DNA of 64,000 bases from Planctomycetota bacterium (GCA_019186845.1 JABARW010000007.1:1386-65385); one strand, 5' to 3'; positions 11,247 to 37,163 are shown, numbered from the stretch's first letter. Numbers and translations are program-made. The notes: generated by a model from the sequence alone, not told the origin.

Positions 11247-11549
11247 ATGAAACGACCCGCGAGGGCGACACCCTCCGAAATCCAGAGCGCCTTGACCGCT
11301 TTGCCCCACTGGGAGCTCCGCAGCGCTTCCATTTTCCGCCGGTTCAAGTTTTCCGACTTCAGGCAGGCCTTCGCCTTCATGACCTCTGTCGCCCTGGCCG
11401 CCGAGAAGCTCGACCATCACCCCGACTGGCGCAACGTCTACAACACCGTGGAAATCGAGTTGATGACCCATGACGCCCAGGGCCTGACAAGGCTGGACTT
11501 CGAACTGGCGCGCCTGATCGAGGCTGCGGCTTGCGCAGTTCCTGAGTAA
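11247..11549 (+). CDS. phhB: 4a-hydroxytetrahydrobiopterin (pterin-4a-carbinolamine) dehydratase
   Basis: LTALPHWEL...[44 protein letters not shown] is the PCD/DCoH signature. Start taken at the internal ATG at 11247 ([13 protein letters not shown]). The ORF extends to 11172. Confidence 0.85.
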
Positions 11550-11602
11550 CGCGCCAGGGGCTTGGGCGGTAGAGGCATTGAAGACCGACGGGGGGCCAAA
11601 GA

Positions 11603-12160: not shown

Positions 12161-13623
12161 ACCATCCGCAACCCCATGACATCACAGCCCTGGCCTATGG
12201 CCTGGTGCCCAGCCCCGAGCGCGAATCGCTGCTGGAGCATGTGCACTTCTGCGCCCCCTGCCGCGAAGCCTATGACCTGGCGTTGGCCGAGCAGGTCGAG
12301 GTGCGCGAGGTGCTGCTTGGGGAAACGCGCAGCGGCGATGCGGAGTCCCGCGCGCTCGACGCCGTCTTGCAGCAGCTCAAGAAGGTCGGCCAGGTTCAGA
12401 GGCCGGGGAGGCTGTTTTCGCTGCGGCCCGCCGCATGGGCCCTTCAGGCTGCCGCGGCCCTGCTGCTGGCGGCGGGTGTCTACTATGTGGCAGTCGCTCT
12501 GCCCGGCGGCGAGACTCCGCCCACGACAGTGGCCGGCGGAGAGTCCGCGGGGGGCGGCAGCGTGAAGAGCCCCGATGCGGCCTCCCTGCCCGGGCTGGAA
12601 GCCGGCGGCCGCGTCACGGACGGCAGCGTGATGGTGGCCATGGACCCCGAGGCCAACCCGGAAACTGCCCGCTGGACGCGCTCGAAGGTGATTCCGGCCA
12701 ACGTGTGGGTGCATAGTTCCGGCTCGGAACCGGTGGCCTGCGAACTGGACAACGCGCGGCTGTCGTTCGTTCCCGACTCCATGTTCAAGCTGGTGCCCGA
12801 TTCCGGCACGCCGGGCCAGTACGCCATCTTTGTGCTGCGCGGCGATGCCAACTTCGCGGTGAAGGATCCGCGGCGCAGCCTCACCGTGCAGACCGGCACC
12901 GGCGACATTCTGGCCACGCCGGGCTCGACCTTTGACCTCGAGTGCGACCCCGCCTTCGTGTTCGCCAATTACCGGCAGCGCGGCAAAGACCTTCCCAGTC
13001 CGCAGAAGGGTCGCGCCCTGGTACGCACCCACGTGCAGCGCGGCGACGTGCTGTTCATGCCCTACGGTGAAAGCTGGGAACGGCCGGAAGCCAGCCGGGT
13101 GGCTTCAGGCCAGACTCTTGAGGTGCAGACAGTGGTGCTGGACCGCATGCAACGCCTGCGCGCCCAGGGCGGGTCTTCGGAGCTGGAGGAAGTCATGAAC
13201 CTGGTTGAGCGACTGCTGCCGGGCGAGCGAAGGAAGTTCGAGGATGAGCTCGAGCGCATGCGCAAGCAGCTTGACACGGCCCAGAAGATCATCGAGCTGA
13301 CCGAGAATGTAGTACTCAAGATCAGCGTCAACGGGCGCGAGTACGAACACTCCAACGGGGTCATGCAGATCATCGAGGGCGCGACCCGCGTTACGCTTCG
13401 TGTCACGACGGCTGAAGTGCTGGGTGAAGCGGAGCTGGACGGCAAGAAGGTCGAGCTGCGCGCCGCCAACTTCGAAGAACTGGCCCGCCAGCACCCGCAG
13501 CTCAAGGAAATGCTGGAAACGCTTTCGCTCAAGGAAGTTCCCGGCGGCCGCCGCATTTCCCTGCGCAGAATAGCCGTGCAGCAGGAGTCGCGGCAGGAAA
13601 CCAGCCCTCAGCAGCAACGCTAG
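12157..13623 (+). CDS. anti-sigma factor (zf-HC2 N-terminus, one TM, FecR-like and coiled-coil extracytoplasmic part)
   Basis: The ATG at 12157 overlaps the sigma gene stop (ATGA). HVHFCAPCREAYDLAL is a zf-HC2 motif. TM segment AAWALQAAAALLLAAGVYYVAVAL. The part of ORF 11812..13623 upstream of 12157 overlaps the sigma gene and is rejected. Confidence 0.75.
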   Translation: MNHPQPHDITALAYGLVPSPERESLLEHVHFCAPCREAYDLALAEQVEVREVLLGETRSGDAESRALDAVLQQLKKVGQVQRPGRLFSLRPAAWALQAAAALLLAAGVYYVAVALPGGETPPTTVAGGESAGGGSVKSPDAASLPGLEAGGRVTDGSVMVAMDPEANPETARWTRSKVIPANVWVHSSGSEPVACELDNARLSFVPDSMFKLVPDSGTPGQYAIFVLRGDANFAVKDPRRSLTVQTGTGDILATPGSTFDLECDPAFVFANYRQRGKDLPSPQKGRALVRTHVQRGDVLFMPYGESWERPEASRVASGQTLEVQTVVLDRMQRLRAQGGSSELEEVMNLVERLLPGERRKFEDELERMRKQLDTAQKIIELTENVVLKISVNGREYEHSNGVMQIIEGATRVTLRVTTAEVLGEAELDGKKVELRAANFEELARQHPQLKEMLETLSLKEVPGGRRISLRRIAVQQESRQETSPQQQR

Positions 13624-21212: not shown

Positions 21213-22367
21213 TTACCCCGGCACGGGAATTCGCCCGGGGTCGGCCGCCATGCGTTCCTCGCGCAGCTTCTCGTCCAGCCCCTTGGGCTCTTCGCGCAAC
21301 TGGTAGTAGAAGTTGCGGCGCCGGGGCGTGAAGCCCGCGTCGCGCACGAGATCGCGGATGGTCAGTTCCGTCATGCGGAAGGCCGCACCGGCCAGGCGCA
21401 CGACGTTTTCCTCGATCATGAGCGAGCCCATGTCGTTGCAGCCATAGCGCAGGCTGACCTGCCCCACCTGCCCGCCCTGCGTCACCCAGCTGGCCTGGCA
21501 GTTGTCAAAGTTGTCCAGAAAGATGCGGGCGACGGCCTGCGTGCGCAGATACTCGCGCCCCCCCGCCACGGGGATATGGGCCATGCGGTTGTCGCGGTTC
21601 TGGAACGTCCAGCATATGAAGGCGGTGAATCCCCCCGTCTCGTCCTGAAGGTCACGCAGGCGCTGCAGGTGTTCAATGCGTTCTGCCAGCGTCTCGACAT
21701 GGCCGAACATCATCGTCGCGGAGCTGCGGATGCCGAGCTTGTGGGCCTGCCGCATGGGCTCAAGCCAGGCATCGGCGCCTCCCTTCTTGGGGCAGATAAT
21801 CTCGCGCACGCGGTCTGACAGCACTTCGGCGCCGCCGCCGGGAATGCTGTCGAGGCCCGCGGCCTTGAGCTCCTTGAGCACGTCGCCAAGCGACATGCGC
21901 CAGAAGAGGGCGAAGTGCTGGATCTCGCTTGGCGAAAACCCGTGATTGTGCAGCCCCATGCCTTTGAAAAGCCCCAGCATGTCCTGGTAGTACCTCAGGG
22001 GCAACTTGGGGTTGTGGCCGCCCTGCAGCAGGATTTCCGTACCGCCGAGGTCCAGCGTTTCCTGCGCCTTGGAGCGCAGACTTGACAGGTCAAGCGTATA
22101 GGCCTCGCCGTCCAGCGGGTGGCGGTAGAATGAGCAGAAGTCGCAATCCGTGATGCACACGTTTGTGTAATTCACGTTGCGGGAGATCACGTAGGTCACC
22201 CGGTCATCGGGGTGCTTGCGCATGCGCACGTGATGGGCCAGCAGGCCCAGCTCGTGGTCTCCGGCGTTCTCCAGCAGCCACAGGCCCTCCGACGCGCTGA
22301 TGCGGCGCCCGTTGAGCACTTTGTCGGCAATGGCGTTGAACGGTGCGTGGTTGCTTGTCGCGATCAT
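21213..22367 (-). CDS. radical SAM enzyme of the MqnC/MqnE family (futalosine menaquinone pathway), MqnC-like
   Basis: 384 aa. VTYVISRNVNYTNVCITDCDFCSFYR carries the CxxxCxxC radical SAM cluster in the CofH/MqnC/MqnE context. It sits directly downstream of mqnA. Confidence 0.75.
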   Translation of the reverse strand: MIATSNHAPFNAIADKVLNGRRISASEGLWLLENAGDHELGLLAHHVRMRKHPDDRVTYVISRNVNYTNVCITDCDFCSFYRHPLDGEAYTLDLSSLRSKAQETLDLGGTEILLQGGHNPKLPLRYYQDMLGLFKGMGLHNHGFSPSEIQHFALFWRMSLGDVLKELKAAGLDSIPGGGAEVLSDRVREIICPKKGGADAWLEPMRQAHKLGIRSSATMMFGHVETLAERIEHLQRLRDLQDETGGFTAFICWTFQNRDNRMAHIPVAGGREYLRTQAVARIFLDNFDNCQASWVTQGGQVGQVSLRYGCNDMGSLMIEENVVRLAGAAFRMTELTIRDLVRDAGFTPRRRNFYYQLREEPKGLDEKLREERMAADPGRIPVPG

Positions 22368-22412
22368 GGAATATCCCGGCCTGAACAGCCCCCCAGCCTC
22401 TGCAGTGCCCGT

Positions 22413-23216
22413 TTATGCCGCGCCCAGCTTCAAGATAGCCGACTTCGGCAGTATCTCAAGATCGGCGGCGCGGCGCGCGAACTCCGTCAGCCCCTCGACG
22501 CAGCGCCCGTCCAGGCGGTGGCGGATGGTGCGTGTCAGGTAGTTCGTAAGGAAGTCTTCGCTTTGACGCGTGGACTCGCGGGCGGCACGCACCAGCCTTG
22601 GCACCTCCAGCAGGCCCAGGTTCAACGCGTCATGGAGCTTGCGTCGCACGGCAGCACTGAGTACGCCGGGCCTTGCCGTCCACAGGGCAAACACGAAGGG
22701 CAGGCCCGTCCACTCAAACCATGCCTGGCTGAGGTCCAGGTAGCGCCAATCCGGCCACAGCGCGCGCGCCCGCAGGCAGTCATCGCCGATCAGCATCAGC
22801 GCGCTCTCGCTGTAGTTGGCAAAAAGCTCAGGCCGAACCTCCGCCAGGTTGATCTCGGGCTGGACGTCCAGCACATTGAGGATGATGCGGGCCAAAGCCA
22901 CGCTGGTGCGCGAGCGCTGATCCATGCGCAGACTGTTGGCCTCGACGGTGTCGCCGCTGGAAAGCCGCGTGAAAATGCCCACGCTGTCCACGGGCCCTTC
23001 CGCCGAAACGCCAAGTTCCAGCACCAGCTCGGTGTCCGGCAGGCGCAGGGCCTCCACCGCGGGCAGCACACCGAGGTCGAGGCGCCCCTGCTCCATGAGG
23101 TCGGAAAGTCGGGCCGGAGTGTCCGGAATCAATTCGATATCCGGGTCACGCTCCAGCGCCACCCACAGGGGTTGGGCGTTGAGAAAGGAAACCACACCAA
23201 CACGAAGCCTGGCCAT
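22413..23216 (-). CDS. mqnA: chorismate dehydratase (menaquinone via futalosine, MqnA)
   Basis: MARLRVGVVSFLNAQPLWVALERDPDIELIPDTPARLSDLMEQGRLDLGVLPAVEAL is typical of MqnA periplasmic-binding-fold proteins. Start taken at ATG 23216. The ORF extends to 23411. Confidence 0.8.
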   Translation of the reverse strand: MARLRVGVVSFLNAQPLWVALERDPDIELIPDTPARLSDLMEQGRLDLGVLPAVEALRLPDTELVLELGVSAEGPVDSVGIFTRLSSGDTVEANSLRMDQRSRTSVALARIILNVLDVQPEINLAEVRPELFANYSESALMLIGDDCLRARALWPDWRYLDLSQAWFEWTGLPFVFALWTARPGVLSAAVRRKLHDALNLGLLEVPRLVRAARESTRQSEDFLTNYLTRTIRHRLDGRCVEGLTEFARRAADLEILPKSAILKLGAA

Positions 23217-23268
23217 GGGCGCAAGAGCGTAGCCTTGGTCGCGAAAAACGACAGGGCGTGGCGCCCCC

Positions 23269-25158
23269 TCATGGGCGGCCACCGTCCAGCGCGGCTCGGA
23301 CCTTGCGCGCCAGTTCGCCCAGCGAGAACGGCTTTTGCAGGAAGAGGCCGCCAGCGCCCCCCTGAAACACGCCGTTCTCCGTATAGCCTGACATGTACAG
23401 CACGCGGACATCGGGGCGGGCCTGCCGAAGGTTCTCCGCCAGCTCGCGGCCGCCCATGCGCGGCATCACCATGTCCGTGAGCACCAGGTCAAAGCGGTTC
23501 TCCTCCGCCATGGCCAGGGCCAGAGCCTCCAGCCCGTCCCTGGCGGCCAGCACGTCATAGCCAAGTTTGCGCAGCTGCAGCACCGCGATCTCGCGCACCG
23601 TGGGTTCGTCCTCCACCAGCAGGACTCGCTCGTGCCCCGTGGGCAGGGACTCGAGCCCGGCGGCCGGTCCCTGGAGCGGGGTTTGGGCGCAGCGCGGCAG
23701 GTAAACCTTGAAGGCCGCCCCATGGCCGGGCTCGCTGTAGACGGCAATGTGGCCGGCATTCTGCTTCACGATGCCAAAGCAGGTGGCAAGCCCCAGCCCC
23801 GTTCCCTTGCCGACTTCTTTGGTGGTGAAGAAGGGCTCAAAGAACTTCTCTTGAAGTTCCCGGGCGATGCCCACGCCCGTGTCGGTAACCGTGACCACCA
23901 CGTATTCGCCGGGCTTGACGTCGCGCCGTGTCCGGACATAGGCCTCATCCAGCACGCAGTTGGCAGTTTCGATGGTCAGGCGTCCGCCCGAAGGCATGGC
24001 ATCGCGCGCGTTGACCACCAGGTTCATGAGAATCTGCTCGAACTGGTTGGGGTCCATGCTCACGCGCCAGAGGTCTTTGGCCAGCACAAACGAAGTGTCA
24101 ATCTCCTCGCCCAGGCGCAACATCTGCTCCATGCCGCGGATGACATCATTGAGCGAAAGCACCCGTGGCTGCGTCATCTGCTTGCGGGCAAAGCCGAGCA
24201 TCTGGCGCGTCAACTCCGCGGCGCGCCGGGAGGCTTTGCGCACCACCTCCAGTTCTTCGTGCTCGCGCGAGGTTTCAGGCAGGCGCCCCAGCACCATTTC
24301 GGTGTAGCCCATGATGGTGGTCAGCAGGTTGTTGAAGTCATGGGCGATGCCACCGGCGAGACGCCCGATGCTCTCCATCTTCTGTGCCTGCAGAAGCTGC
24401 TCTTGAAGCCTGCGGCTCTCCGTAATGTCTCGCAGCGAGCCGATCACGCGCCAGGGCATGCCCTGCGCATCGCAGATGGCCTGGCCCCGCGCTTCCAGCC
24501 AGACCCAGGAGCCGTCGCAACGCTCCACGCGAAACGTATCGGCGTAAGGCAGACCCTTGTCAAAATGCTCGCGCTGGGCCGCCATGTAACGGTCACGGTC
24601 TTCCGGGTGGATGCGGCGCTGCACCTCGGAAAAGCTCGGTTCCTCGCCCCCCTCGGGCCATGCCAGCAGCTCGCGTAGGGGCCCGGCATAGCGGGCCCGG
24701 CCGCCGGGGACATCCCACTCCCAGATGACGTCGCGGGTGGATTCCAGCACCAGGCGGTAACGCTCTTCCTCCAGGCGCGCGCTCTGGCCCTGCGGGCCGG
24801 CCGCGGCCGCCTCGATGGCCTGCTTGTAGGCGGTGATGTCGTCCGCCAGGGCGATGAGTCCCCAGGGAGCCGCATGAACGTGAGCCAGCATGCAGCGTTT
24901 GCCCAACCAGCCCTCCACCCGGGCCGGATGGCCGGTCTTGAGGACTTCACGGTAAGCCGCCAGAGACTTGGTTTGCGCGAACACGGGAAACAGGCTGAGC
25001 AGATTCTGGCCGGCGAGTTCTTGCACCTTCATGCCCACGAAGCGGGCGTAGGCCTCATTGCAGAACTCGACAGTCATGTCCGGCCGCAGGGCCAGCACCA
25101 TCCATGGCTTGCAGGCCATGAGCGCGGCAAAGCGCTGCTGCGCCAGGGAAGGATCCAT
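23269..25158 (-). CDS. hybrid sensor histidine kinase / response regulator with PAS domains
   Basis: HisKA H-box [17 protein letters not shown]. HATPase N/G boxes [12 protein letters not shown] and [14 protein letters not shown]-terminal receiver [13 protein letters not shown]...[14 protein letters not shown]. The start is uncertain. The ORF runs to 25356, but that stretch overlaps the divergent gene. Confidence 0.85.
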
Positions 25159-26139: not shown

Positions 26140-26970
26140 CTACTCGCCGACCTTGATGCGGGCGTAGGCCTTGACCGTCAGCTTGGCGCCGATGGTCTTG
26201 CCGATGTTCTCCACGTGCTGGCTTACGCTCAGCTTGGGTTCCTTCACGAAGGGCTGCTCGATGAAGCACTTTTCCTTGAGCAGGGCGTTGACCTTGCCCT
26301 CGGCGATCTTGTCGAGCACACCTTCGGCCTTGCCTTCGGCCTTGGCTGCCTCGCGAGCGATTTCCTTTTCCTTGGCCAGGTAGTCCGCCGGCACACCTGA
26401 GCGGTCCAGGGCAATGGGCGCGCTGGCCGCGGCGTGCATGGCCAGGTCCTTGGCCAGAGCCTTGGCCGTGTCGCTCTTGCCCCCGTCGCCCTCGACCTGT
26501 ACCAGCACACCCAGCTTGAAGTCGCTGTGCAGGTAGGTGCCAAAGAAACCCGCGCCGCCCAGCGTCAGCCGCGCGCTCTTACCGAACTTCATGTTTTCGC
26601 CGGTCTTGGCCACCATGGCGGTCAGTTTGTCCTGGCGCGCAGCCAGGTCGCCGCCCTTGTCAGCGAAGTCCTGCGCGATGGCATCGACCATGGCCACGAA
26701 CTGGTCGTTACGAGCCGTGAAGTCCGTCTCCGACTGGACCTCGACCAGCGCGGCATGCTTGCCGTCCTTGCTCACCGCCACGCCGATGCGCCCCTGGGCG
26801 GGGCTGCGGCCGGCCGGCTTGCCGCCCTTGGGCGCGCCCTGCTTGCGGAGCAGCTCAATGGCGGCTTCCTGGTTTCCGTTGGTTTCCGTCAACGCGCGCT
26901 TGGCGTCCATCATGCCGCAGTCCGTTGCGTCGCGAAGCGCCTTGATCATCGCTGCCGTAATCTCTGCCAT
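26140..26970 (-). CDS. tsf: translation elongation factor Ts
   Basis: MAEITAAMIKALRDATDCGMMDAKRALTETNGNQEAAIELLRKQG is the EF-Ts UBA-like N-terminus. The gene is downstream of rpsB, as in most bacteria. Confidence 0.95.
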   Translation of the reverse strand: MAEITAAMIKALRDATDCGMMDAKRALTETNGNQEAAIELLRKQGAPKGGKPAGRSPAQGRIGVAVSKDGKHAALVEVQSETDFTARNDQFVAMVDAIAQDFADKGGDLAARQDKLTAMVAKTGENMKFGKSARLTLGGAGFFGTYLHSDFKLGVLVQVEGDGGKSDTAKALAKDLAMHAAASAPIALDRSGVPADYLAKEKEIAREAAKAEGKAEGVLDKIAEGKVNALLKEKCFIEQPFVKEPKLSVSQHVENIGKTIGAKLTVKAYARIKVGE

Positions 26971-27083: not shown

Positions 27084-28124
27084 CTATTCCTTGGACTCGG
27101 CCTTCTCGCCACCTTCCGCCGGAGTGTCCTTCTTCTGGGCGCGGGGCTTGGTGCGAACCGTGGGGGCCGGAGCCGGTGCTGACTGCGCCTCGGCGACTTC
27201 CACGGCCTCCTTGGCCGCGGCCTCCGCCTCGGGGCTGGCCTCATCAGCGCGACCGCGCCGGCGCGTGCCGCCGCCACCGCCGCGACGGTCGCCGCGGGGG
27301 CCGCCGCGTCCGCGGTCGTCCTTGGGCTTGGGCGCCGCATCGTCATAACCGACGATGCCCAGGCCCTTCTTCAATTCGAGGCCCTTGCCCTGCTCGGCCA
27401 GCTTCTTGCCTTCGATGCAGGAATCGGCCAGGGCATGGAGCACAATCTGGATGCCGCGCACGGAATCGTCGTTGCCGGGAATGACGATGTCGACGTGCTC
27501 GGGGTTGCTGTCCGTGTCCACCACGGCAATCACCGGCACGCCCAGCTTCCGGGCCTCGAGAATGGCCGTGCGTTCCATGTTGGCGTCAACGATGATCAGG
27601 GCGCTGGGCAGGTTGTCGAGGCGGCGCAGACCCTCCAGGTTGCTGAGGATCTTGCGGCGCTCGCGGTTGACGACGGCCTGCATCTTCTTGGGCATCTTGG
27701 CGAGCTGACCGCTGGTTTCGAGGGCCTCCAGCTTGTCAAGGCGCGCCAGACGCTTGCGGATCGTGGGGAAGTTGGTCAGGGTGCCGCCCAGCCAGCGCTC
27801 ACTCACAAAGGCCTGCTCGCAGCGCTCAGCTTCGGCGCGGACAATGTCCTTGGCCTGCTTCTTGGTGCCGACGAACACGACCTTCACGCCGGTGCTCACC
27901 AGGTTGCGCAGGAAGTGCTTGGCGGCAATCAGGCCGCGCAGCGTTTCCTTCAGATTAATGATGTGGATGCCGTTCTTCTTGTCGCGGATGTACCCCTTCA
28001 TGCGGGGGTCCCAGCGGCTGGTTCGGTGCCCGAAGTGGAAGCCGGCTTCAAGAAGGGACTCGGGAGAAAGCTTGGGAATGTCCGCCTGGCCGCTGGGGGC
28101 CGGCTGCGCCTGCGCTGTTGCCAT
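27084..28124 (-). CDS. rpsB: 30S ribosomal protein S2 with long Arg/Gly- and Ala/Glu-rich C-terminal extension
   Basis: GFHFGHRTSRWDPRMKGYI and VDTDSNPEHVDIVIPGNDDSVRGI are S2 signatures. The product is 346 aa, against roughly 250 aa for a typical S2. Confidence 0.95.
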   Translation of the reverse strand: MATAQAQPAPSGQADIPKLSPESLLEAGFHFGHRTSRWDPRMKGYIRDKKNGIHIINLKETLRGLIAAKHFLRNLVSTGVKVVFVGTKKQAKDIVRAEAERCEQAFVSERWLGGTLTNFPTIRKRLARLDKLEALETSGQLAKMPKKMQAVVNRERRKILSNLEGLRRLDNLPSALIIVDANMERTAILEARKLGVPVIAVVDTDSNPEHVDIVIPGNDDSVRGIQIVLHALADSCIEGKKLAEQGKGLELKKGLGIVGYDDAAPKPKDDRGRGGPRGDRRGGGGGTRRRGRADEASPEAEAAAKEAVEVAEAQSAPAPAPTVRTKPRAQKKDTPAEGGEKAESKE

Positions 28125-28390: not shown

Positions 28391-28418
28391 TTGACCTGCC
28401 TAGCCCGACCGCTATCTT
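28391..28418 (+). promoter_or_regulatory. putative sigma70-type promoter for the 28497.. gene cluster
   Basis: TTGACC-N16-TATCTT, about 80 nt upstream of the GTG at 28497. Confidence 0.35.
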
Positions 28419-28496: not shown

Positions 28497-29381
28497 GTGC
28501 ATATCGCCACCAAGGTGCTGATCATCGTCGTACTGCTGCTGAGCTTGATCCTGAGCCAGTATGTGGCTGTCGCGCTTGCCGGCAACGTGCAGTGGCGCGA
28601 GCGCTACGAATGGGAAGTGGCGGCGCGCCACCGCGACAAGGACCGCCTCGAGGCGGCCTACCGCGAGTATCTGGCAGCCCGCCACAAGAATCGCGAGGAC
28701 AAGGCCGAGCAGAGTGCCGAACTGGCCAAGCTCAACGCGTCGCGCGCGACCATGGAGTCCTGGCAGGCGGACTCTGCCCTGGCCCGGAGCGACGTGGAAG
28801 CCCGCGCCCAGGAACTTGAAGACGCCGTTCGCGACTTCCCTTCCATTACCCGCGACTATGACAACGAAGTCGTCTCCGTGCTTCAGGCCGCCGTTGCCGA
28901 GCGCACGGGCAAGAAGCGCGAACTGTTCACCGAGCGCGGCGCGCTGCTCAAGCAGGTGGCCACCGCCCACAGCCTTTATGCCCGCCACCAGGAAGACTAT
29001 CTGCGCATGGAGTTCCAGCAGTTCGTGCTGCAGGAAGAGCTGGAGCGCCGCCTCGACATGCGCGCCCGTTATCGCTCCCTGCGCCCCGACCTGCAGGCGG
29101 ACCTTGGCGAAAACGGCCCCGTGATTTTCGCCCGTGTGGTGTGGTCCACCCCCACCAGCCTCCAGCTCAACAAGGGCCGCCGCGATGGCGTCGAACTGTT
29201 CCAGAAGTACACGATCACGCGAAACGGCGTGACCGTGGCTGTGGTCAACGTCGTGGAAGTCCAGAACGAAACCTGTGAATGCACCATTGAGGATGTTCCG
29301 AACCGTCAGGTGCTGCCCCGCGAAGGCGACGAGGCTGTCACCCGCCTGTTCATGGCGCGCCTGACGGGCCGACGCCCCTAG
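28497..29381 (+). CDS. bitopic membrane protein: TM + coiled coil + small C-terminal beta domain (paralog 1)
   Basis: GTG start preceded by AGGAG. TM segment KVLIIVVLLLSLILSQYVAVALAG. The C-terminus carries LQLNKGRRDGVELFQKYTITRNGVTVAVVNVVEV. Confidence 0.7.
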   Translation: MHIATKVLIIVVLLLSLILSQYVAVALAGNVQWRERYEWEVAARHRDKDRLEAAYREYLAARHKNREDKAEQSAELAKLNASRATMESWQADSALARSDVEARAQELEDAVRDFPSITRDYDNEVVSVLQAAVAERTGKKRELFTERGALLKQVATAHSLYARHQEDYLRMEFQQFVLQEELERRLDMRARYRSLRPDLQADLGENGPVIFARVVWSTPTSLQLNKGRRDGVELFQKYTITRNGVTVAVVNVVEVQNETCECTIEDVPNRQVLPREGDEAVTRLFMARLTGRRP

Positions 29382-29457
29382 GCGGAAGTCTGAAACTCTG
29401 AAGTGCATGGCACAGTCGATCACTTGCAGTGCAGCGCTGGAAACCTGAGGAACAACG

Positions 29458-30513
29458 ATGGGCGTATTCTCCCGAACGATGCTGATGCTCGCCGTCGCGT
29501 GGCTTGTCGGCCTGAATGTGGCGTTCATCTTCATGCATATGGACCCCGAGCCCGACTGGCGTGACAAGTGGGTCGCCGAGGCCAACATCCGCCGCGCCAT
29601 AGCCTACCGCTATGTCGACCTCAACGGCGGCATTGTGGGCGAGCGCGGCCACGACAAGGGCCTGAACTCGGCCGATGCCCAGCTTGCCCCTGAAAGCCTG
29701 GGGGGCGCGCCCTACGGCCTGCCGGACGAAGGCGGCTCGGGCGGCTCCGAAGATCCGCTGCCCGGCTCCAAGATTGACAAGCGCCACAGCCTCATTGAGC
29801 TCGAGCGCAACCAGGGCGGCGAAGCCAAGCGTGCCCACCTTGCAAGCGTGGCCGAAATCAACAGCCAGCTGGCAACGCTGGAAAAGCAGATCGCGGAAAA
29901 CGGCCGCGCCTGGCGCAAGGCCCTGAACCGCTTCAGCGAGTCGCGCGACCGCGCCCGTCTGTTTGGCGCGGAGATGCAGGCTTTCCGCTACATCATCGCG
30001 AGTTTCCAGCAGAAGGTGTTCAACCTCGACTATGAAATCCAGCGCGTGATCATCGAGCGTGATGCCCTGACGGCCGAACTGGCCCAGGTCAAGAACGACA
30101 TCGAGCGTATCAAGAAGCAGGAAACGGAGCTGGAAGACGTCTACTACCAGCTCTCCCGCAACTACACCAACACGGTCAAGACGCTGGCCATGTACGAGCA
30201 GATCGACCCCAACATCCGCCGTCTCGCCGACATGTCCGGCCGCACCTGGCTGCAGGGCCGCGTCATGGCCGTTGGAGATGACCCGCGCACGGGCGTCGTC
30301 ACCATCAGCATCGGCAAGCAGGCGGGCGTGGAGTTCAACCAGCTCTTTACCATTCACCGCGCAGGCAAGGTCATCGGCCGCATGCGCGTGGAGCAGATCG
30401 AGGACAACTACTCCGTGGGCCGCCTGACGGACGAGTTCCGCGGCAAGGTCACCGTGCTCGAGAATGACTCCATCAAGAGCGCGGCCACCTTTGGCTCCGC
30501 GGCAGTTCGGTAG
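29458..30513 (+). CDS. bitopic membrane protein: TM + coiled coil + small C-terminal beta domain (paralog 2)
   Basis: RBS GAGGA. TM segment MLMLAVAWLVGLNVAFIFM. Long coiled coil. The C-terminus carries VTISIGKQAGVEFNQLFTIHRAGKVIGRMRVEQI. Confidence 0.7.
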   Translation: MGVFSRTMLMLAVAWLVGLNVAFIFMHMDPEPDWRDKWVAEANIRRAIAYRYVDLNGGIVGERGHDKGLNSADAQLAPESLGGAPYGLPDEGGSGGSEDPLPGSKIDKRHSLIELERNQGGEAKRAHLASVAEINSQLATLEKQIAENGRAWRKALNRFSESRDRARLFGAEMQAFRYIIASFQQKVFNLDYEIQRVIIERDALTAELAQVKNDIERIKKQETELEDVYYQLSRNYTNTVKTLAMYEQIDPNIRRLADMSGRTWLQGRVMAVGDDPRTGVVTISIGKQAGVEFNQLFTIHRAGKVIGRMRVEQIEDNYSVGRLTDEFRGKVTVLENDSIKSAATFGSAAVR

Positions 30514-30588
30514 CAGTCTGGCTGACGCAGGAACTATTGAAAGTTTTCGGGCCTCGCCCGCTGAATCGCAAATCAGGAAGAGAAGACC

Positions 30589-31233
30589 ATGGCCAAGAAG
30601 CCGCCACCCGCAGGAAAAGTTCCGCCTCCCGGAGCCGCAGGCGCCCCGGTGCAGAATGAGGCCGTCGGCAAGTTCGACAAGTTCGCCCTCTTCGGCCTGA
30701 CCCTCCCGGCCACCGTGCTGGCTCTGACGGCGCTGGTACTGGCGGTCAGCTACACCCACCAGCACATGGATACGGGCTTCCTTGGCTTCCTGCCGGGCCC
30801 CAAGAAGATTACTGACTATGAGTCCGCGGGGCCCAAGGGCCTGAACAAGGCGGACAACGTCCACATCATCGGCCTGGAGAGCCAGAACTACATCGGCCGC
30901 CTCCAGGAAGGTGACGTCGATGTCGCGGTCTTTGATGCAGGCTCGCGCCACGGCGTTCAACTGGGCGACGTATTCACGGTCAAGGCCCAGGGCGACGCGG
31001 CAGTCCGGCTTGAGTTCGTGGTGTTTGACCTGCAGCGTGATACCAGTCGCGCCTATATTCTGCTCGGCCAGGACGTCTCGGCTTCCAATGGCGAGCGCAA
31101 GCACTCCCTCGCGCTCTCCAGCATGAAGACCTTGATCGGGGCCACAGAAGGCGCCCTGAACGTCGAGGTCCAGCGCAAGTGGGCCGACCAGATTGTGCGC
31201 CGTCACGTCGAGGCTCGCTCGAACAAGCCCTGA
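30589..31233 (+). CDS. bitopic membrane protein: Pro-rich N-terminus + TM + small beta domain (paralog 3)
   Basis: MAKKPPPAGKVPPPGAAG..., TM segment FALFGLTLPATVLALTALVLAV, then VAVFDAGSRHGVQLGDVFTVKAQGDAAVRLEF. Confidence 0.65.
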   Translation: MAKKPPPAGKVPPPGAAGAPVQNEAVGKFDKFALFGLTLPATVLALTALVLAVSYTHQHMDTGFLGFLPGPKKITDYESAGPKGLNKADNVHIIGLESQNYIGRLQEGDVDVAVFDAGSRHGVQLGDVFTVKAQGDAAVRLEFVVFDLQRDTSRAYILLGQDVSASNGERKHSLALSSMKTLIGATEGALNVEVQRKWADQIVRRHVEARSNKP

Positions 31234-31248
31234 CCTGCGTGAACTCCC

Positions 31249-31281
31249 GGCGCCGCCTCTTCTGGGGCGGCGCTTCTTTTT
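31249..31281 (+). terminator. intrinsic terminator after paralog 3
   Basis: Stem ggcgccgcc / ggcggcgct with an 8-nt loop, followed by TTCTTTTT. Confidence 0.75.
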
Positions 31282-31497
31282 CATCCCCGAAATCCTGCGT
31301 GAGGATTGGCAATGCCCGCCGCACTAGAGCCCGTGCCGGCAGCGCGGTCCTGATTGAACTGAACGGGCCCCGTGGTTTTTCTGGCCATTGGGGCCGGCCA
31401 CCGCGTAATAGGCTTGGGGCAGGACATTTCAGAAGGGCCGCACTTCCGGGGCCGAAGGTCACCGCTAACCGCAAACAAGGTCAAGAGAGGGTTTCGC

Positions 31498-32673
31498 ATG
31501 CCGCAGATGCGATTGAAGCTTGCCGCATTGTCCGTGCTCGCGCTGGGACTCAGCGCAGCCACCATAACGCTTGAAGCCGCGCCGGCCCAGGCGCAGGAAT
31601 TTCCAACTTTGAAGAAGCTTCAGGCCGAGCGCGTGGCGCTGGCCCGGAAGCTGACACCCAGCGTGGTGGCCGTCGCGGACAGCCTTCCCGACCTGAGCAA
31701 CCCCCAGGCCACCGGTCTGGCGCAGGGCGCAGCGTTTGCGGCTTCGGGCTTTGTGGTGGACGAAGAGTACGTCGTGACGAACTTCGAGTCCGCGCCCACG
31801 AACAACCTGGAGCCCGGTTCTTCCTGCTGGCTGATGGCCCATGACGGCAAGGAGTTCACGGGCAAGGTGGTCGGCAAGGACAAGCGCAACCTCATGCTTC
31901 TGGTCAAGATGGACGAAGGTCACCCCAAGCTGCCTTCCCTGAAGCTGGCCAACTCCGACAAGGTGGAAGTCGGCTCCACGGCGCTGGCTCTGGGCAACAC
32001 GCTGGACAGCCTGCTCATCGACCGCCAGATCAGCTTTTCCTTTGGAACGGTTTCGGGCTTCTACCGCTTTGAACCCATCGGTGTGCTCAATCCCGACGAA
32101 GGCGGCGACCCCTACCGCGGCAACGTATTCGAGGTCGATACGGCCATCCACGCCGGCGACCACGGCGGACCCATCTGCAACCTGGACGGCGAAGTCATCG
32201 CCATGATGTGCCCCCACTGGATGGCCGGCCGCCACATGGGCTGCGCCGTACCCTCCAACCAGATTGCCGCGGTGCTGCCGCAGCTCAAGAAGGGTGTCAA
32301 GGAAGACGACCTGGCTCAGGCCACGCTCGGCTTCAAGGCCAAGTACTCGAAGGAAGCGGGCGCCATCATCGTCACCGACGTAACGCCCGGCGGACCTGCC
32401 GAGAAGGCGGGCATGAAGAACGGCATGCACCTCATGCGGGTAGACAACTACAAGATTCCCAGCATGCCGCGGCTGAAGGAAATGCTGGGCATCGGATTCA
32501 TCGAGCGGGAAGTGGAGATTGACGGCGGCTTTGGCCGCACGCGCAAGACCAAGGTGGCCGTGAGCTATGGCCTGCCCATCGGTACGCACATCCAGCTCAC
32601 GGTGAAGGATGCCGAGAGCGGGCGGGAAAAGACGGTGGACCTGATCACGGTCCAGAAGGAAGACGACTTCTAA
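31498..32673 (+). CDS. HtrA/DegP-like trypsin-fold + PDZ protein lacking the catalytic triad (pseudoprotease)
   Basis: Signal peptide MPQMRLKLAALSVLALGLSAATITLEAAPAQA. At the His position VVTNFES has Phe. At the Asp position KRNLMLLVKM has Asn. At the Ser position HAGDHGGP replaces GNSGGP. One PDZ domain (IIVTDVTPGGPAEKAGMKNGM). Confidence 0.75.
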   Translation: MPQMRLKLAALSVLALGLSAATITLEAAPAQAQEFPTLKKLQAERVALARKLTPSVVAVADSLPDLSNPQATGLAQGAAFAASGFVVDEEYVVTNFESAPTNNLEPGSSCWLMAHDGKEFTGKVVGKDKRNLMLLVKMDEGHPKLPSLKLANSDKVEVGSTALALGNTLDSLLIDRQISFSFGTVSGFYRFEPIGVLNPDEGGDPYRGNVFEVDTAIHAGDHGGPICNLDGEVIAMMCPHWMAGRHMGCAVPSNQIAAVLPQLKKGVKEDDLAQATLGFKAKYSKEAGAIIVTDVTPGGPAEKAGMKNGMHLMRVDNYKIPSMPRLKEMLGIGFIEREVEIDGGFGRTRKTKVAVSYGLPIGTHIQLTVKDAESGREKTVDLITVQKEDDF

Positions 32674-32724: not shown

Positions 32725-33816
32725 ATGAAAACCAAGTTCACAACCTTCGCACTGCTTCTGGCCCTGGGCCTGTCGGCGGCGGCACTCCCGGCCCAGGAGC
32801 CTGTGCTGCACAAAGAGCTCGAGGCCCAGCGCATCAAGGTGGCCAAGTCCATGGCCAAGTTCACGGTCTCGGTCGAAATCGATTACGACCACGAGGCCGT
32901 GCGCCCGCCCACGCCGCGTACCCCGCGGCTGCCCATTCCCGGCATGGGCGGCGAGGACCCCAATGACCCCTTCCAGCGCTATGACATCGGGCCCTTCTCG
33001 GGCCTGATCGTGGGCAAGAACCACGTGTTGATCTCTGATCGCACCCTGGGCGACTTCAACACGACGGGGGCGGGCCCGGGCGTTGAGGGCGTGACCGTTA
33101 CGCTGCCCAGTGGCGACCGCTACCCGGCCAAGGTCGTCGGCCGTCACCAGGAGATTGACCTCGCCCTGCTCGAGATCAGCGCCGACCTGAGCACCAGCAT
33201 AGACGTCGCCATTGCCACCTTTCCCGCCGATGAGCTGAAGCCCGAGCGCGGCCAGCAGGTCTTCGTCGTGGGGCGCGGGCAGAACCCGCTGCGCGTGCTG
33301 GTCAATGACGGTATTGTCAGCGCCATTGACCGTGAGGCGCGCAAGGCCTTCCAACTCGATGCCCGCATCGGAAACGCCACTCTGGGCGCGCCCGTGGCCG
33401 ACAACGACGGAAGGATCATCGGCATGGTCACGCTGCACAACCACGAAACGTTCGGGCAGGCCTCGGGCGTGAGCTACGCGGCCTACATGCACGAAGTAAA
33501 GCGCGCCTATGCGCTGATGAAGGAAGGCAAGTTCGTCGAGCGGCCCAAGGCCCCCTTCATGGGCATTGGCGCCAACAAGAAGTGGCCCGACAAGCCGGGC
33601 CTCGAAGTAGGCAACGTGGTTTCAGGATCCGGTGCGGAGAAGGCCGGCATCCGCACGGGCGACATCATCCTCAAGGTGGACGATGCCGAGATGAACGACG
33701 TGCCGGACCTGATTGCCCACATCGCCGGCCACAAGGTGGGCGATGTGCTTACCGTGAAGCTGCTGCGCGGCGAAAAGGAAATGGACGTCAAGGTTACCCT
33801 TGGCCCCAGGCCCTAG
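32725..33816 (+). CDS. HtrA/DegP-like trypsin-fold + PDZ protein lacking catalytic His and Ser (pseudoprotease)
   Basis: Signal peptide MKTKFTTFALLLALGLSAAALPAQE. VLISDRTL replaces LTNxHV. EIDLALLEI keeps the Asp. IGNATLGAPV replaces NPGNSGGPL. One PDZ domain (EVGNVVSGSGAEKAGIRTGD). Confidence 0.75.
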   Translation: MKTKFTTFALLLALGLSAAALPAQEPVLHKELEAQRIKVAKSMAKFTVSVEIDYDHEAVRPPTPRTPRLPIPGMGGEDPNDPFQRYDIGPFSGLIVGKNHVLISDRTLGDFNTTGAGPGVEGVTVTLPSGDRYPAKVVGRHQEIDLALLEISADLSTSIDVAIATFPADELKPERGQQVFVVGRGQNPLRVLVNDGIVSAIDREARKAFQLDARIGNATLGAPVADNDGRIIGMVTLHNHETFGQASGVSYAAYMHEVKRAYALMKEGKFVERPKAPFMGIGANKKWPDKPGLEVGNVVSGSGAEKAGIRTGDIILKVDDAEMNDVPDLIAHIAGHKVGDVLTVKLLRGEKEMDVKVTLGPRP

Positions 33817-33856: not shown

Positions 33857-35251
33857 ATGAAGAAGTTGATGGCAGCACTTGCACTCTCGCTTTTCATCGG
33901 CGGGTTTGCCGCGCAGGCGCAGGACAAGAAGACGTCGGCGCCCTCGACCAGCATCGAGAAGATTGACCGTGAAACGCGCGACCTGGTCAAAAAGGTCTGG
34001 CCCGCGTTCGTGCACATCGGCGGCGGCTCCGGCGTGTGCATCAGCGAGGACGGCTACTTCCTGACCAACCACCACGTTTACAACGACGCCCCCAAGGGCA
34101 TGGTGGCCAAGACCTCGGTGCGCATGGCCGGCAACTCGCGCAAGTTCACGGCCATCCCCGTGGGAGCTGACCCGCGCGGCGACATCGTGCTGGGCAAGAT
34201 CGTGCTGGAGAAGGGCGAGAAGGTGCCCTTTGCCAAGCTGGCGGACAGCGAAAAGGTCCAGATTGGCGACCTTTGCCTGAGCATCGGCGACCCCTTCCTG
34301 CTCTCGGGAGGCGGCTCCGAGCCGACCATCACCCTGGGCACTGTGACCGCGAAGAACCGCTTCCAGGGCGGCTACTGCGACTGCATCCAGATTGACACGG
34401 CCATCAACCCCGGCAACTCGGGCGGCCCCTCCTTCAACATGGACGGCGAAATCATCGGCATCAACGGCCGTAACATCGCCAGCCACGGCAAGCGCTTCAA
34501 TACGGGCGCGGGCTACGCCATCCCCGCAAACCAGATCCGGCACTTCATGGACGCGCTGAAGGCCCAGGAAGGCGGCGCCATCGTTGTTCGCCATGGCCTC
34601 GTCAGCGGCCTGAAGATTTCGCTGGGCGCCAAGGCCGAGGGCGCGGTGGTGGAGGCCGTCGAGCCCGAGACCGAGGCCTCTGACGCCGGCTTTCAGGCGG
34701 GCGACGTCATCGTCAAGATGGACGATTCCGTCATCTTCAACGCCTTCCGCTATTACGGCGTCGTCGGGACCAAGCCTCGCGGCAGCACCTTCAAGTTCAT
34801 GGTCAAGCGCGGCGACAAAACGGTCGAACTCAGCGCCCGCAACGACCTGCCCACGGAATCCGGCCAGTTCGGTACCATCCCGCGCAGCGATGAAGAAGCC
34901 CGCCGCGACGGTGGCGGCGGCATTGCCGGCATGATGGACCCCTTCAAACTCCCCACAGCCAAGAGTTCCCTGGGCATCGCCAACGGCGGCTGGAAGCGCA
35001 ACCCGGACCGCAAGGTGGGCGGCTTCATCATGCTCAAGTTCGCCAAGGTGGGCGGTGAACAGAGCCCGCTGGAGGCCGCCGGCCTTCAGGTCAATGACAT
35101 CCTCATCAGCATTGGCGGGCGCAGGATTCACTTCCTTTGCGACGTGAGCGATATCCTCATCTCCGTGGACGCCGGTACCCCCCTGCTCGTCAAATATATC
35201 CGCGACGGTCAGGAAGCCGAAGTCACCGTCATCACCGCCGCCAGGCCTTGA
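33857..35251 (+). CDS. HtrA/DegP family serine protease with two PDZ domains (intact triad)
   Basis: Signal peptide MKKLMAALALSLFIGGFAAQA. GYFLTNHHV (His), RGDIVLGKI (Asp) and DTAINPGNSGGP (Ser). Two PDZ-like segments. Confidence 0.85.
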   Translation: MKKLMAALALSLFIGGFAAQAQDKKTSAPSTSIEKIDRETRDLVKKVWPAFVHIGGGSGVCISEDGYFLTNHHVYNDAPKGMVAKTSVRMAGNSRKFTAIPVGADPRGDIVLGKIVLEKGEKVPFAKLADSEKVQIGDLCLSIGDPFLLSGGGSEPTITLGTVTAKNRFQGGYCDCIQIDTAINPGNSGGPSFNMDGEIIGINGRNIASHGKRFNTGAGYAIPANQIRHFMDALKAQEGGAIVVRHGLVSGLKISLGAKAEGAVVEAVEPETEASDAGFQAGDVIVKMDDSVIFNAFRYYGVVGTKPRGSTFKFMVKRGDKTVELSARNDLPTESGQFGTIPRSDEEARRDGGGGIAGMMDPFKLPTAKSSLGIANGGWKRNPDRKVGGFIMLKFAKVGGEQSPLEAAGLQVNDILISIGGRRIHFLCDVSDILISVDAGTPLLVKYIRDGQEAEVTVITAARP

Positions 35252-35309: not shown

Positions 35310-37163
35310 TCAAACCGCAAGCCCGTGCCTTCCCAGCAGTTCACGGACCCGGGCCAGAACCTCCGGCGCATGGGTCTGTTTGCGGGGCCAGTCTCGGGCA
35401 AAACCGTCACGGCTGTCCTTGCTCGTGGCGTCAATCACCAGGCGGCCGGTGTGGCGCGCCAGTCTGACGCGGCCGGAAGACTCGGCCTGAGGGCGCTCAT
35501 CAAAGATGCAGTCCCGCTCGGGGTCCATGTTCGCCAGGGCGGCCCACACCAGTTCCTCGCCGCTGCCGCGCGTCACCAGCCCCGCCTCCAGTACCACAAT
35601 GGGGGGCAAGGGGGCATCCTTGGCCCGCTGGAACAGCTCCCGGGCCAACTCGTGCGCCTGATAGCCGCGCTGCTTCTGAATCTCCAGCACGTGAACGCCG
35701 CCGACTTCCCAGTGGCCGGCCAGGCCCAGGCCGTCGAGCGGCGGCATGGCCGCCGGACCCTCAGAGGCCAGGAAAAGCCCCGTCAGCTCTTCGCCGGGAA
35801 GCTTGCGGGTGGCATCGAGGCTGACCTTGCTGCCGAAGTGAAGGGCGCGGGTGGCGTGGTCCAGGGTCTCGGTGGGCCCCAGCACAAACTCGACATCGCG
35901 TGCAAAGTTGACACGCTCAAGGATATGGCGCGCCAGGGCCGGCTCGTCGGTCATGTCAGGCGCGGTCTCATCGACCACGCAGATCACCTTGGTGAACATG
36001 GCCTGACCCAGACCCCAGACGGCGTGGGCCACTTTGCGGGCCTGACCGGGGTAGCTCTTGCGGATTTTGACCAGCATGAGGTTGTGGGCCACGCCGGCAA
36101 AGGGCAGGCGATAATCGATGACTTCGGGGATGGTCTGCTGCATCAGGGGCAGGAACAGGCGCTCAATCGCCCGCGCCATCCATGAATCCTCCTGGGGGGG
36201 CGGTCCCACGACGGTGGCAAAGTAGACGGGCTCGCGCCGCCGCGTAATGGCAGTGACGTGGAATGTGGGGTAGTCGTCCGCCAGCGAGTAAAAGCCCGTA
36301 TGGTCGCCAAAGGGGCCTTCGCGGCGCTTTTCGTCGATGGCCACGTAGCCCTCGATCACGAAGTCGGCGCTCGCCGGCACCTGGAGGTTTACGGTCTTGC
36401 ACTGCACCATCTCGACGGGCCGGCCCTGCAGAAAGCCCGCCAGGATCATCTCGTCCAGCCCCGGGGGCAGCGGCAGCACGGCCGAAAACGTGACCGCGGG
36501 GGCTCCACCGATGGCAATCGCGGCCTCCAGACGGTCCTTGCCGGCGCGTTTGGCCTCGCGCATGTGTTCGGCGGCCGTGTGGTGCGTGTGCACGTGAAAG
36601 CCCGTGGTGCGCCGATCGTAGAGCTGGATGCGGTACATGCCGCAGTTGCGCTTGCCGTCGCGCGGCGAGTGCGTGAACACCAGCGGAAAGGTGATGAAGG
36701 GTCCGCCGTCTTCCGGCCATGTTCTGAGTACGGGAAGTATTGACAAGTCAATGGCATCCCCCGTATGCACAACTTCCTGGCAGGGAGCCCGCTTCACATA
36801 ACGCGGGAAGTAGCCCGCAAGCTGGGAAAGCAGTGGCAGGGCCTTGAGTTTGTCCATCAGGCTCTTGCGCGGCGCCTGCAGCAGTTCGAGAAGTTCGGCC
36901 AGTCGGTGCTTCAGGCCCTCAAAGTGTTCGACGCCGCACACCAGCGAGAGTCGCCTCTCGCTGCCCAGGGCATTGATCAGCACGGGCACGCCGGCGCCCC
37001 GCACGTTGGAAAACAGCAGCGCGGGGCCGCCCCTGGGCAGCTTGGAGACACGGTCGGCCGCACAGGCGATTTCCTGGTCCGTCGAAACGGCATCGCTGAT
37101 TTCGACGAGTTCCTTGCGGCGCTTGAGGTCGGCGATGAAGGAGCGCAAATCGGGATAGGGCAT
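35310..37163 (-). CDS. UbiD family decarboxylase (probable menaquinone-biosynthesis decarboxylase)
   Basis: 617 aa. MPYPDLRSFIADLKRRKELVEI..., GGPFITFPLVFT and EGPFGDHTGFYS are UbiD-family motifs. Confidence 0.85.
   Translation of the reverse strand: MPYPDLRSFIADLKRRKELVEISDAVSTDQEIACAADRVSKLPRGGPALLFSNVRGAGVPVLINALGSERRLSLVCGVEHFEGLKHRLAELLELLQAPRKSLMDKLKALPLLSQLAGYFPRYVKRAPCQEVVHTGDAIDLSILPVLRTWPEDGGPFITFPLVFTHSPRDGKRNCGMYRIQLYDRRTTGFHVHTHHTAAEHMREAKRAGKDRLEAAIAIGGAPAVTFSAVLPLPPGLDEMILAGFLQGRPVEMVQCKTVNLQVPASADFVIEGYVAIDEKRREGPFGDHTGFYSLADDYPTFHVTAITRRREPVYFATVVGPPPQEDSWMARAIERLFLPLMQQTIPEVIDYRLPFAGVAHNLMLVKIRKSYPGQARKVAHAVWGLGQAMFTKVICVVDETAPDMTDEPALARHILERVNFARDVEFVLGPTETLDHATRALHFGSKVSLDATRKLPGEELTGLFLASEGPAAMPPLDGLGLAGHWEVGGVHVLEIQKQRGYQAHELARELFQRAKDAPLPPIVVLEAGLVTRGSGEELVWAALANMDPERDCIFDERPQAESSGRVRLARHTGRLVIDATSKDSRDGFARDWPRKQTHAPEVLARVRELLGRHGLAV

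Follow-up and report, generated by a model that had tools for sequence, protein, structure and literature searches.

The 64,000-nucleotide stretch of DNA analysed here (the window; GCA_019186845.1 JABARW010000007.1:1386-65385), from a Planctomycetota bacterium, carries three consecutive genes, called A, B and C, whose products combine an N-terminal transmembrane (TM) helix with a small C-terminal beta-barrel that appears, from profile and fold comparisons, to be a domain of the TsaP/FlgT-C type. What is new is their variant of architecture, within a large, lineage-restricted and unannotated family; what is known is the periplasmic barrel type on which this architecture builds. We tentatively read A-B-C, with a probability of roughly 45%, as a scaffold or spacer that is anchored in the inner membrane, spans the periplasm and serves envelope or cell-wall machinery. 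The three genes are:

28497-29381, + strand: gene A, open reading frame (ORF) of 294 amino acids (aa) with a GTG start
29458-30513, + strand: gene B, ORF of 351 aa
30589-31233, + strand: gene C, ORF of 214 aa

An earlier note on this DNA had described the three ORFs as tandem paralogs with an MreC-like layout and had quoted one motif string from each. They are real genes according to the ORF listing, to their G+C content at third codon positions (A 0.83, B 0.86, C 0.81; within the range of the other window genes) and to their orthologs (60-76 per ORF; A 61, B 65, C 76), whose N-termini agree with the chosen starts. The three strings are found in the translations of A, B and C.

A membrane anchor, a stalk and a small barrel

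A is bitopic: hydrophobicity places a TM helix at about aa 6-29, which is followed by some 179 aa of helical stalk and then by the C-terminal barrel. AlphaFold2 (AF2), run for B on the ortholog alignment, gives a TM helix at aa 3-28, a short helix at 34-56, and then a long single helix that leads to a six-strand barrel, with a mean predicted local distance difference test score (pLDDT) of 77. At 1.5 Å per residue, this helix of 138 residues would span about 20 nm if straight, and a heptad scan of residues 127-250 of B found 97 windows vs 10.6 +/- 9.2 in shuffles. The AF2 model of C (mean pLDDT 80.5) places a TM helix within aa 31-60 and shows no coiled coil; this helix is preceded by a conserved Lys/Pro-rich N-terminal tail, presumably cytoplasmic, with the motif QSEAVGKFDKF (alignment A3). 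Thus, the N-terminal TM helix of the earlier note is backed by AF2 for B and C and by hydrophobicity for A, and its overall layout of TM helix, helical stalk and small beta-barrel, with the products facing the envelope, is upheld. The structural elements map as follows, where the broad barrel profile is one built from the wider family with the window proteins excluded:

29118-29351, + strand: barrel of A, aa 208-285 (hhalign against the broad barrel profile, 97.1%, E=7e-11)
29791-30204, + strand: long single helix of B, aa 112-249 (AF2, pLDDT 84-95; strong heptad periodicity)
30241-30483, + strand: six-strand barrel of B, aa 262-342 (AF2; strands 264-272, 280-283, 296-301, 304-314, 319-323 and 338-342)
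30859-31071, + strand: barrel of C, aa 91-161 (AF2), followed by a short helix and a strand

Two local features of these proteins can be added. At aa ~60-110, B carries a Pro/Gly-rich insert that is low in confidence or disordered in AF2, yet conserved in sequence (alignment A1); its pattern PESLGxAPYGLPDExGS...DPLPG (29635-29790, + strand) is missing from some orthologs and may be a linear binding motif. A has a C-x-C pair at aa 260 and 262 (QNETCEC; 29274-29282, + strand), present in most orthologs but not all, which could be a disulfide or a metal site.

By sequence, the barrel resembles TsaP and FlgT more closely than MreC

Pfam and NCBIfam gave nothing significant on A, B or C, in agreement with the earlier statement that no named family can be assigned: besides coiled-coil noise there was one weak FlgT_C match (PF16538, cut-off 27 bits), at 13.2 bits on C, with no match on A and B. 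Among the orthologs, FlgT_C is the commonest sub-threshold match to a Pfam family other than coiled coils (B 18/28, A 11/29, C 5/32), and in the relatives P0211, P0212 and P0213 it reaches 27.3-33.4 bits, above the cut-off. Sequence-profile searches of the PDB with the full-length B and C alignments returned nothing meaningful, and the barrel-only profile (A6) alone worked, matching TsaP (3jc8, E=1.3e-7; 6ve2, 2.8e-4) and FlgT (3w1e, 0.21). Together, the FlgT_C matches and the TsaP profile matches indicate that the barrel is probably a TsaP/FlgT-C-type domain, with MreC as a relative in fold but not the family. A six-strand barrel fold of the FlgT_C/TsaP type is present in the AF2 models of both B and C.

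The likeness to MreC drawn by the earlier note is borne out in part. MreC barrels head the Foldseek matches of B against the PDB (9a5z_B, E=1.8e-4; 7eft_B, 2.1e-4; 2j5u_A, 3.2e-4) and the layout is similar, but the Pfam MreC model (PF04085) finds no match at E<=1 on A, B or C, and the proteins have one barrel rather than two. In the B orthologs this model gives sub-threshold matches in 5/28 (best E=0.02), it is absent from the 25 most frequent Pfam families for the A orthologs and from all 10 for those of C, and in multi-barrel relatives it reaches about 20-22 bits (cut-off 28). The Foldseek set is the same for B and C, namely MreC, the F1-ATPase alpha/beta N-terminal barrel, FlgT and a Vibrio LPHT-ring chain, with E-values between about 2e-4 and 1e-3 for B and near 1e-2 for C (FlgT 3w1e, 8.2e-4 and 2.2e-2, respectively). 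This list agrees with the published topology of the FlgT C-domain, a six-strand barrel arranged as in the F1 beta N-terminal domain and the barrels of adaptor proteins (PMC4446572). The profile searches that the earlier note had suggested yielded no confident match to a well-characterised family on A, B or C.

The shared topology with adaptor barrels, and a succession of N-terminal TM helix, long helix and barrel that loosely recalls HlyD, could suggest that A, B and C are periplasmic-adaptor (membrane-fusion) subunits of an efflux or secretion pump. This is highly improbable: there are no HlyD, lipoyl or alpha-hairpin Pfam matches, AF2 gives B a single helix and not a hairpin, and no transporter gene is adjacent. 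PilN/PilO/PilP and GspL/M/C sets likewise consist of two paralogous bitopic proteins and a small beta protein. A, B and C as sets of this kind were considered and rejected, as there were no Pfam matches and the fold is a barrel.

A and B are closer to each other than to C

The description of the genes as three tandem paralogs holds for A and B, but the direct link of C to either is marginal, and its barrel link is seen only with profiles. A and B match by BLASTP over 213 residues (E=8e-6), and hhalign of their ortholog alignments gives 95.7% (E=9e-9), covering the stalk end and the beta domain. Direct hhalign of C with A or B is confined to the motif (E=0.007 and 0.043). When compared with the broad barrel profile, in contrast, the C barrel matches at 92.5% (E=5e-7, residues 108-161), so that the barrels of A, B and C join this profile at 97%, 99.6% and 92.5% probability, respectively. 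In addition, the C-family hidden Markov model (HMM; A3) matches the same barrel repeats as the B-family HMM, in register. Since C matches both the barrel profile and these repeats, all three proteins share one domain. On these comparisons, A and B are true paralogs with the whole architecture in common, C sharing the TM helix and barrel alone. The exact consensus motif of the earlier note does not survive in the orthologs, where most C proteins have N-V instead of G-V.

A Planctomycetota family with a stalk of conserved length

Close homologs of A, B and C are all annotated as hypothetical proteins and come from Planctomycetota metagenome-assembled genomes (MAGs), and a scan of one genome per species found them in 21 species, again all Planctomycetota MAGs. 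The literature searches made found no description of these proteins. An exhaustive search with the B-family profile retrieved 1279 proteins at E<=1e-3, 63 of them at E<=1e-10. Among the best 148 of the 1279, about 70 are proteins of 260-320 aa with an N-terminal TM helix, a stalk and a barrel; the remainder are secreted, lipoprotein-like or VIT-VWA/YfbK-type proteins with 2-7 barrels in tandem. The barrel also occurs behind a signal peptide in P0212 and behind a lipoprotein-like signal in P0211.

Stalk length was measured from where the TM helix ends to where the barrel begins, for 74 bitopic representatives with mutual identity of at most 50%; its median is 181.5 residues and its interquartile range 175-185, with a second group, the B type, at 215-238 residues. 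The stalk of A, as given above, is ~179 residues long and that of B ~234 residues, including its ~50-residue insert. Stalk sequence is poorly conserved, with a mean column identity of 28% (alignment A4). Such constancy of length in a stalk whose sequence is free to vary would be expected of a spacer or ruler.

Conservation of the triad and its neighbours

The gene neighbourhoods of 23 clade loci, in which B identity ranges from 49% to 97%, were compared over ~8 kb with a tblastn marker set, a check that the earlier note had proposed. A, B and C are found together in 23/23 loci, and three HtrA-like genes lie 3' of them in 20/23, the trio being absent in L008, L018 and L021. rpsB-tsf is upstream in most of the loci, and UbiD and a tetratricopeptide repeat (TPR) gene are downstream in about half.

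Related modules also occur at much lower identity outside the clade. In L024 (37% GC) and L026, by rpsT or dnaA, an A-like gene precedes a B-like one, which is followed by two C-like genes, whereas L111 and L112 have a B-like followed by a C-like gene, in L112 with an A-like barrel fragment upstream. The nearest sister B-like proteins that were looked up lie on short contigs only. No HtrA genes lie alongside in L024, L026 and L111. Recurrence in these distant loci implies that the link to HtrA is a feature of the clade, whereas the triad is a stable unit that predates the clade. The earlier note had called it unusual to find three diverged copies side by side, a view that does not hold within this family, as the A-B-C order recurs in distant Planctomycetota. 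The earlier proposal of a single module with the HtrA trio is partly supported: the linkage within the clade is 20/23, but it is opposed by a terminator and a gap of ~260 bp between the two gene sets and by the distant modules devoid of HtrA. In L008, the place of the HtrA trio after C is taken by an ORF of 1474 aa (9794-14218, + strand).

The same neighbourhoods bear on whether A, B and C could be TsaP/FlgT-like ring or collar parts of a trans-envelope machine, secretin or flagellar, anchored in the inner membrane and not in peptidoglycan. The nearest solved profile relatives are TsaP chains and FlgT_C recurs as a Pfam match. TsaP, with two FlgT-C-like domains, rings the PilQ secretin (bioRxiv 10.1101/2020.05.29.123786), and both TsaP and FlgT build periplasmic rings (bioRxiv 10.1101/2020.05.29.123786; PMC4446572). 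Moreover, an inner-membrane-anchored scaffold that holds a secretin is known, GspB/OutB (PMC9239104). However, the tblastn marker set revealed no secretin, pilus or flagellar gene over the ~8 kb compared in the 23 clade loci, none of the genes of those machines is among the window genes scanned with Pfam, the proteins carry no LysM, and the neighbours are housekeeping genes (rpsB, tsf, dnaA and rpsT). Such a role is therefore rather unlikely. TonB- or VirB10-like energy transducers were also rejected, there being no ExbBD or type IV secretion system genes nearby.

Single-copy relatives next to mreB and pbp2

Some distant members of the family, referred to as X, are single-copy relatives of 274-299 aa with the TM, stalk and barrel layout, and lie directly upstream of mreB and pbp2. 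The order lnt, X, a tiny ORF with one TM helix, mreB and pbp2 is found in L028, L029 and L030 (for example, L028 8001-10197 and L029 5453-8505); L029 has two X copies, and in a Pirellulales MAG (L027) X also follows lnt. A metagenome scan, for which an 11-sequence X subgroup was used because the 60-sequence X alignment was too diverse, added 80 further X loci. Among those with enough sequence, mreB lies <=1.5 kb downstream of X in 27/43 and lnt upstream in 21/35. pbp2 follows mreB with a gap of <230 bp in 10/19 loci, leaving no room for mreC and mreD. A genuine MreC gene stands beside X in L028 and L030, and tblastn detects MreC in L046; X is therefore not simply MreC.

These loci could also be read as a sign that A, B and C are triplicated, strongly diverged orthologs of MreC whose role is direct activation of PBP2/RodA in the Rod system. 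The succession of TM helix, coiled coil and barrel fits, B has MreC chains as its first Foldseek matches, relatives precede mreB, and 10/19 loci have no space for mreC and mreD between mreB and pbp2. In line with this, MreC is reported to be patchy to mostly absent in Planctomycetes (PMC5147048). Against it stand the missing Pfam MreC match on A, B and C and its weakness in the few B orthologs that show it, the one barrel of B, the coexistence of genuine MreC in L028, L030 and L046, the closer sequence relationship to TsaP/FlgT_C, and the lack of mreB, mreD or pbp2 near A-B-C in the 23 loci. Direct MreC orthology thus seems distinctly unlikely. The MreC context absent at A-B-C is approached by the distant relatives upstream of mreB-pbp2, but in L028 and L030 genuine MreC is a separate gene. 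Hence, the MreC label fails as family membership and survives as a functional lead, and an association with cell shape has indirect support.

A possible periplasmic scaffold

In the scaffold or spacer reading that we prefer, A and B each consist of a very short N-terminus, a TM helix, a stalk of fixed length and one TsaP/FlgT-C-type barrel at its tip, and would pair through their TM helices and stalks. C would join them at the membrane, adding the QSEAVGKFDKF motif of its presumably cytoplasmic tail and a third barrel near the membrane, to give a putative hetero-oligomer. The barrels of A and B would be held in the periplasm, ~20 nm from the membrane, and would engage a partner at this fixed distance; candidates are proteins of peptidoglycan synthesis, the wall itself or an assembly associated with the outer membrane. 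In this way the complex would serve envelope machinery as a spacer or scaffold. What the analysis shows are the genes, their architecture and domain homology, the conserved triad and stalk length, and the genomic links; the topology, the hetero-oligomer, the barrels' partners and any tie to HtrA or the Rod system belong to the proposal. We infer the periplasmic position of the barrels from the very short N-termini, the signal-peptide-bearing and lipoprotein-like relatives and the periplasmic TsaP and FlgT, which carry the same barrel (bioRxiv 10.1101/2020.05.29.123786; PMC4446572).

The evidence on partners points in three directions: the X-mreB-pbp2 linkage to the cell-wall synthesis machinery, the TsaP/FlgT kinship to ring-type assemblies, and the clade-specific neighbours to HtrA. 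Accommodating the last of these, it is plausible that the HtrA trio is a client or partner of A-B-C in this clade.

Several observations weigh against the scaffold reading. A straight single helix in B is not certain, because the predicted template modelling score of its AF2 model is low (0.32). Of the heptad-rich stretches claimed by the earlier note for the first two genes, that of B is strong, but the signal of A is not above shuffles (23 vs 14.8 +/- 10.4 in a crude scan). The terminator separates C from the HtrA genes, and the trio is missing in three clade loci and in all distant modules examined. The mreB adjacency concerns the paralogs X and not A, B or C; no mreB, pbp2 or lnt was found in the window by tblastn, and the earlier note had likewise seen no mreB/mreD context. 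The lnt-X-mreB block also carries GATase and MoeA in conserved order, so part of the X-mreB adjacency may be inherited synteny. Finally, the argument that A, B and C assemble with one another comes from their co-occurrence.

A more far-reaching version would make the family Planctomycetota-specific periplasmic organisers that replace MreC, MreD and RodZ for MreB-PBP2, with A-B-C as a heterotrimeric version that, in this clade, also positions an HtrA heterotrimer of one active and two dead subunits; we regard it as doubtful. Planctomycetota build and shape their envelope without FtsZ. How their MreB and PBP2 are organised is an open question, because MreD and RodZ, and mostly MreC, are reported to be absent (PMC5147048), and the family bears on it. 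Represented by 1279 profile matches and by no model in Pfam or NCBIfam, its members unite a membrane anchor with a stalk of conserved length and a barrel of a type that builds rings; many of them precede mreB-pbp2, providing concrete candidate genes for tractable planctomycetes. If the stalk is a spacer, its length should matter.

Organisation of the operon

A-B-C is transcribed divergently from rpsB and tsf, and the downstream genes are the three HtrA-like ones. The elements around the triad are:

26140-26970, - strand: tsf
27084-28124, - strand: rpsB
28391-28418, + strand: candidate sigma-70-like promoter 5' of A, TTGACC-16-TATCTT (consensus scan, 9/12 matches)
31249-31283, + strand: intrinsic terminator after C; an 11-bp stem (31249-31274) with 9 G-C pairs and a 4-nt loop, then TCTTTTTCAT

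Shine-Dalgarno-like sequences (AGGAG, GAGGAA and AGGAAGAG) lie 5-8 nt 5' of the starts, and the intergenic spacers are 76 bp and then 75 bp. The ribosome-binding sites, spacers and divergence from rpsB noted earlier are all borne out, and the strong terminator is confirmed as the 11-bp stem with a T tail to 31283. The promoter candidate is a pattern match only, with 0.8 such sites expected by chance in the region, and Rfam and tRNA scans found no RNA element in or around the operon. The most likely start of H1, the first HtrA-like gene, is the ATG at 31498, ~260 bp 3' of C. Given its Shine-Dalgarno-like sites, spacers and terminator, A-B-C looks like a single transcription unit, distinct from the HtrA genes.

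The HtrA trio

The three genes downstream of the terminator all match Pfam Trypsin_2 and PDZ, with the NCBIfam degP_htrA_DO model below its cut-off and weak NCBIfam similarity to MamE/MamO:

31498-32673, + strand: H1, HtrA-like, with signal peptide, predicted to be catalytically dead
32725-33816, + strand: H2, HtrA-like (Pfam), His and Asp kept, serine motif degenerate (GNATLGAP)
33857-35251, + strand: H3, HtrA-like, complete His-Asp-Ser triad and two PDZ domains

H1 has no His near the catalytic His position, Leu at the Asp position and GDHGGP for GNSGGP; all three triad residues are lost in 20/20 orthologs, the Ser position being occupied by His in 19/20 and by Tyr in 1/20. H2 orthologs have GNSTLGAP (16/19) or GNATLGAP (3/19) vs the canonical GNSGGP, the window protein having Ala at the position. 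H3 matches E. coli DegP at E=7e-38 (TNHHV, DPRGDIVL, GNSGGP), with the triad in 19/19 orthologs. Judged by these residues, the trio appears to be one active protease and two degenerate ones, and the conservation of the degenerate paralogs suggests that they are under selection. The basic unit of HtrA proteases is a trimer, and a mixed H1-H3 trimer with one live site would therefore be possible.

This arrangement invites the explanation that the triad mainly serves the HtrA trio, as membrane anchor, adaptor or regulated substrate of a heteromeric protease in which one subunit is active and two are dead. Of the 23 clade loci, 20 keep the six-gene order and about half keep UbiD and TPR next downstream; three genes stand beside three, all six products have a TM helix or a signal-peptide-like N-terminus, and the degenerate paralogs are conserved. 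Nonetheless, we consider it unlikely, since the terminator and ~260-bp gap separate C from H1, the triad occurs without HtrA in six loci (L008, L018, L021, L024, L026 and L111), and none of A, B and C ends in the hydrophobic residues that PDZ ligands typically have. C-terminal PDZ-ligand motifs on the three proteins were in fact rejected on the ortholog alignments, in which the C-termini are basic and variable. On the scaffold reading, any link between A-B-C and the HtrA proteins would be confined to this clade.

Other features of the window

The region is flanked by homologs of the futalosine pathway and a UbiD-family decarboxylase (21213-23411 and 35310-37163, both - strand); the labels MqnA and MqnC come from Pfam VitK2_biosynth and Radical_SAM/CofH_C in the orthologous locus L002, and several clade genomes retain the futalosine genes and UbiD at the same positions with respect to the six-gene block. 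The rpsB product, of 346 aa, extends ~90 residues beyond the S2 domain in a tail rich in Arg, Gly, Ala and Glu. Further away, a 940-aa protein (49873-52695, - strand) matches Pfam Volactin (PF25216; E=5.6e-81, 273 bits) over its C-terminal ~320 residues, with no Pfam match in its first ~610 residues; volactin is an archaeal actin homolog. A bacterial serpin is encoded at 5661-6878, - strand (Pfam Serpin, E=8e-98).

Comparison with known systems

By sequence profile, no solved structure comes closer to the barrel than TsaP (3jc8 chain Ta, 6ve2 chain O). TsaP has a periplasmic FlgT-C-like beta domain with the motif I-S-x-G-x-x-D-G-V-x-x-G-x-x-F-x-V-x-R; it differs in its LysM peptidoglycan anchor, its two barrels, the lack of a TM helix or coiled coil, and its role in ringing PilQ. 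The FlgT C-terminal domain (PF16538, 3w1e) is a six-strand barrel that recurs as a Pfam match in the A, B and C families and is also a fold match, whereas FlgT as a whole belongs to the flagellar H ring of Vibrio, as a soluble protein of three domains.

In MreC (PF04085; 2j5u, 7eft, 6zm0), likewise a bitopic protein, an N-terminal TM helix and a coiled coil are combined with periplasmic beta-barrels. No other protein matched B better in Foldseek, and paralogs of A and B adjoin mreB-pbp2. MreC has two barrels after its coiled coil, however, whereas AF2 gives one each to B (aa 264-342, then the end) and C. A TM helix followed by a coiled coil is seen in B, A has a TM helix and a stalk homologous to that of B, and C has no coiled coil. 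The gene context mreB-mreC-mreD(-pbp2-rodA) does not occur around A-B-C, where the marker set showed only rpsB/tsf, HtrA, UbiD and TPR in the 23 clade loci.

For the HtrA trio, the nearest parallel is with HtrA sets of the MamO/MamE type, in which one competent HtrA stands beside conserved degenerate paralogs, MamO being an inactive protease. The trio differs in having no magnetosome context and in its clade-specific sites, GDHGGP and GN[SA]TLGAP. Combining one live subunit with two that are dead but conserved, the trio would offer a second testable case of protease/pseudoprotease partnership.

Other scaffolds are alike in mechanism only. Csd5 is a protein with a TM helix, a coiled coil and an SH3 domain. 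GspB/OutB has been described as anchoring the outer-membrane secretin pore to the inner membrane and cell wall (PMC9239104). No homology was detected between the A-B-C proteins and GspB/OutB or Csd5-type scaffolds, and the head domains differ; both would nevertheless work in the manner proposed here for A-B-C.

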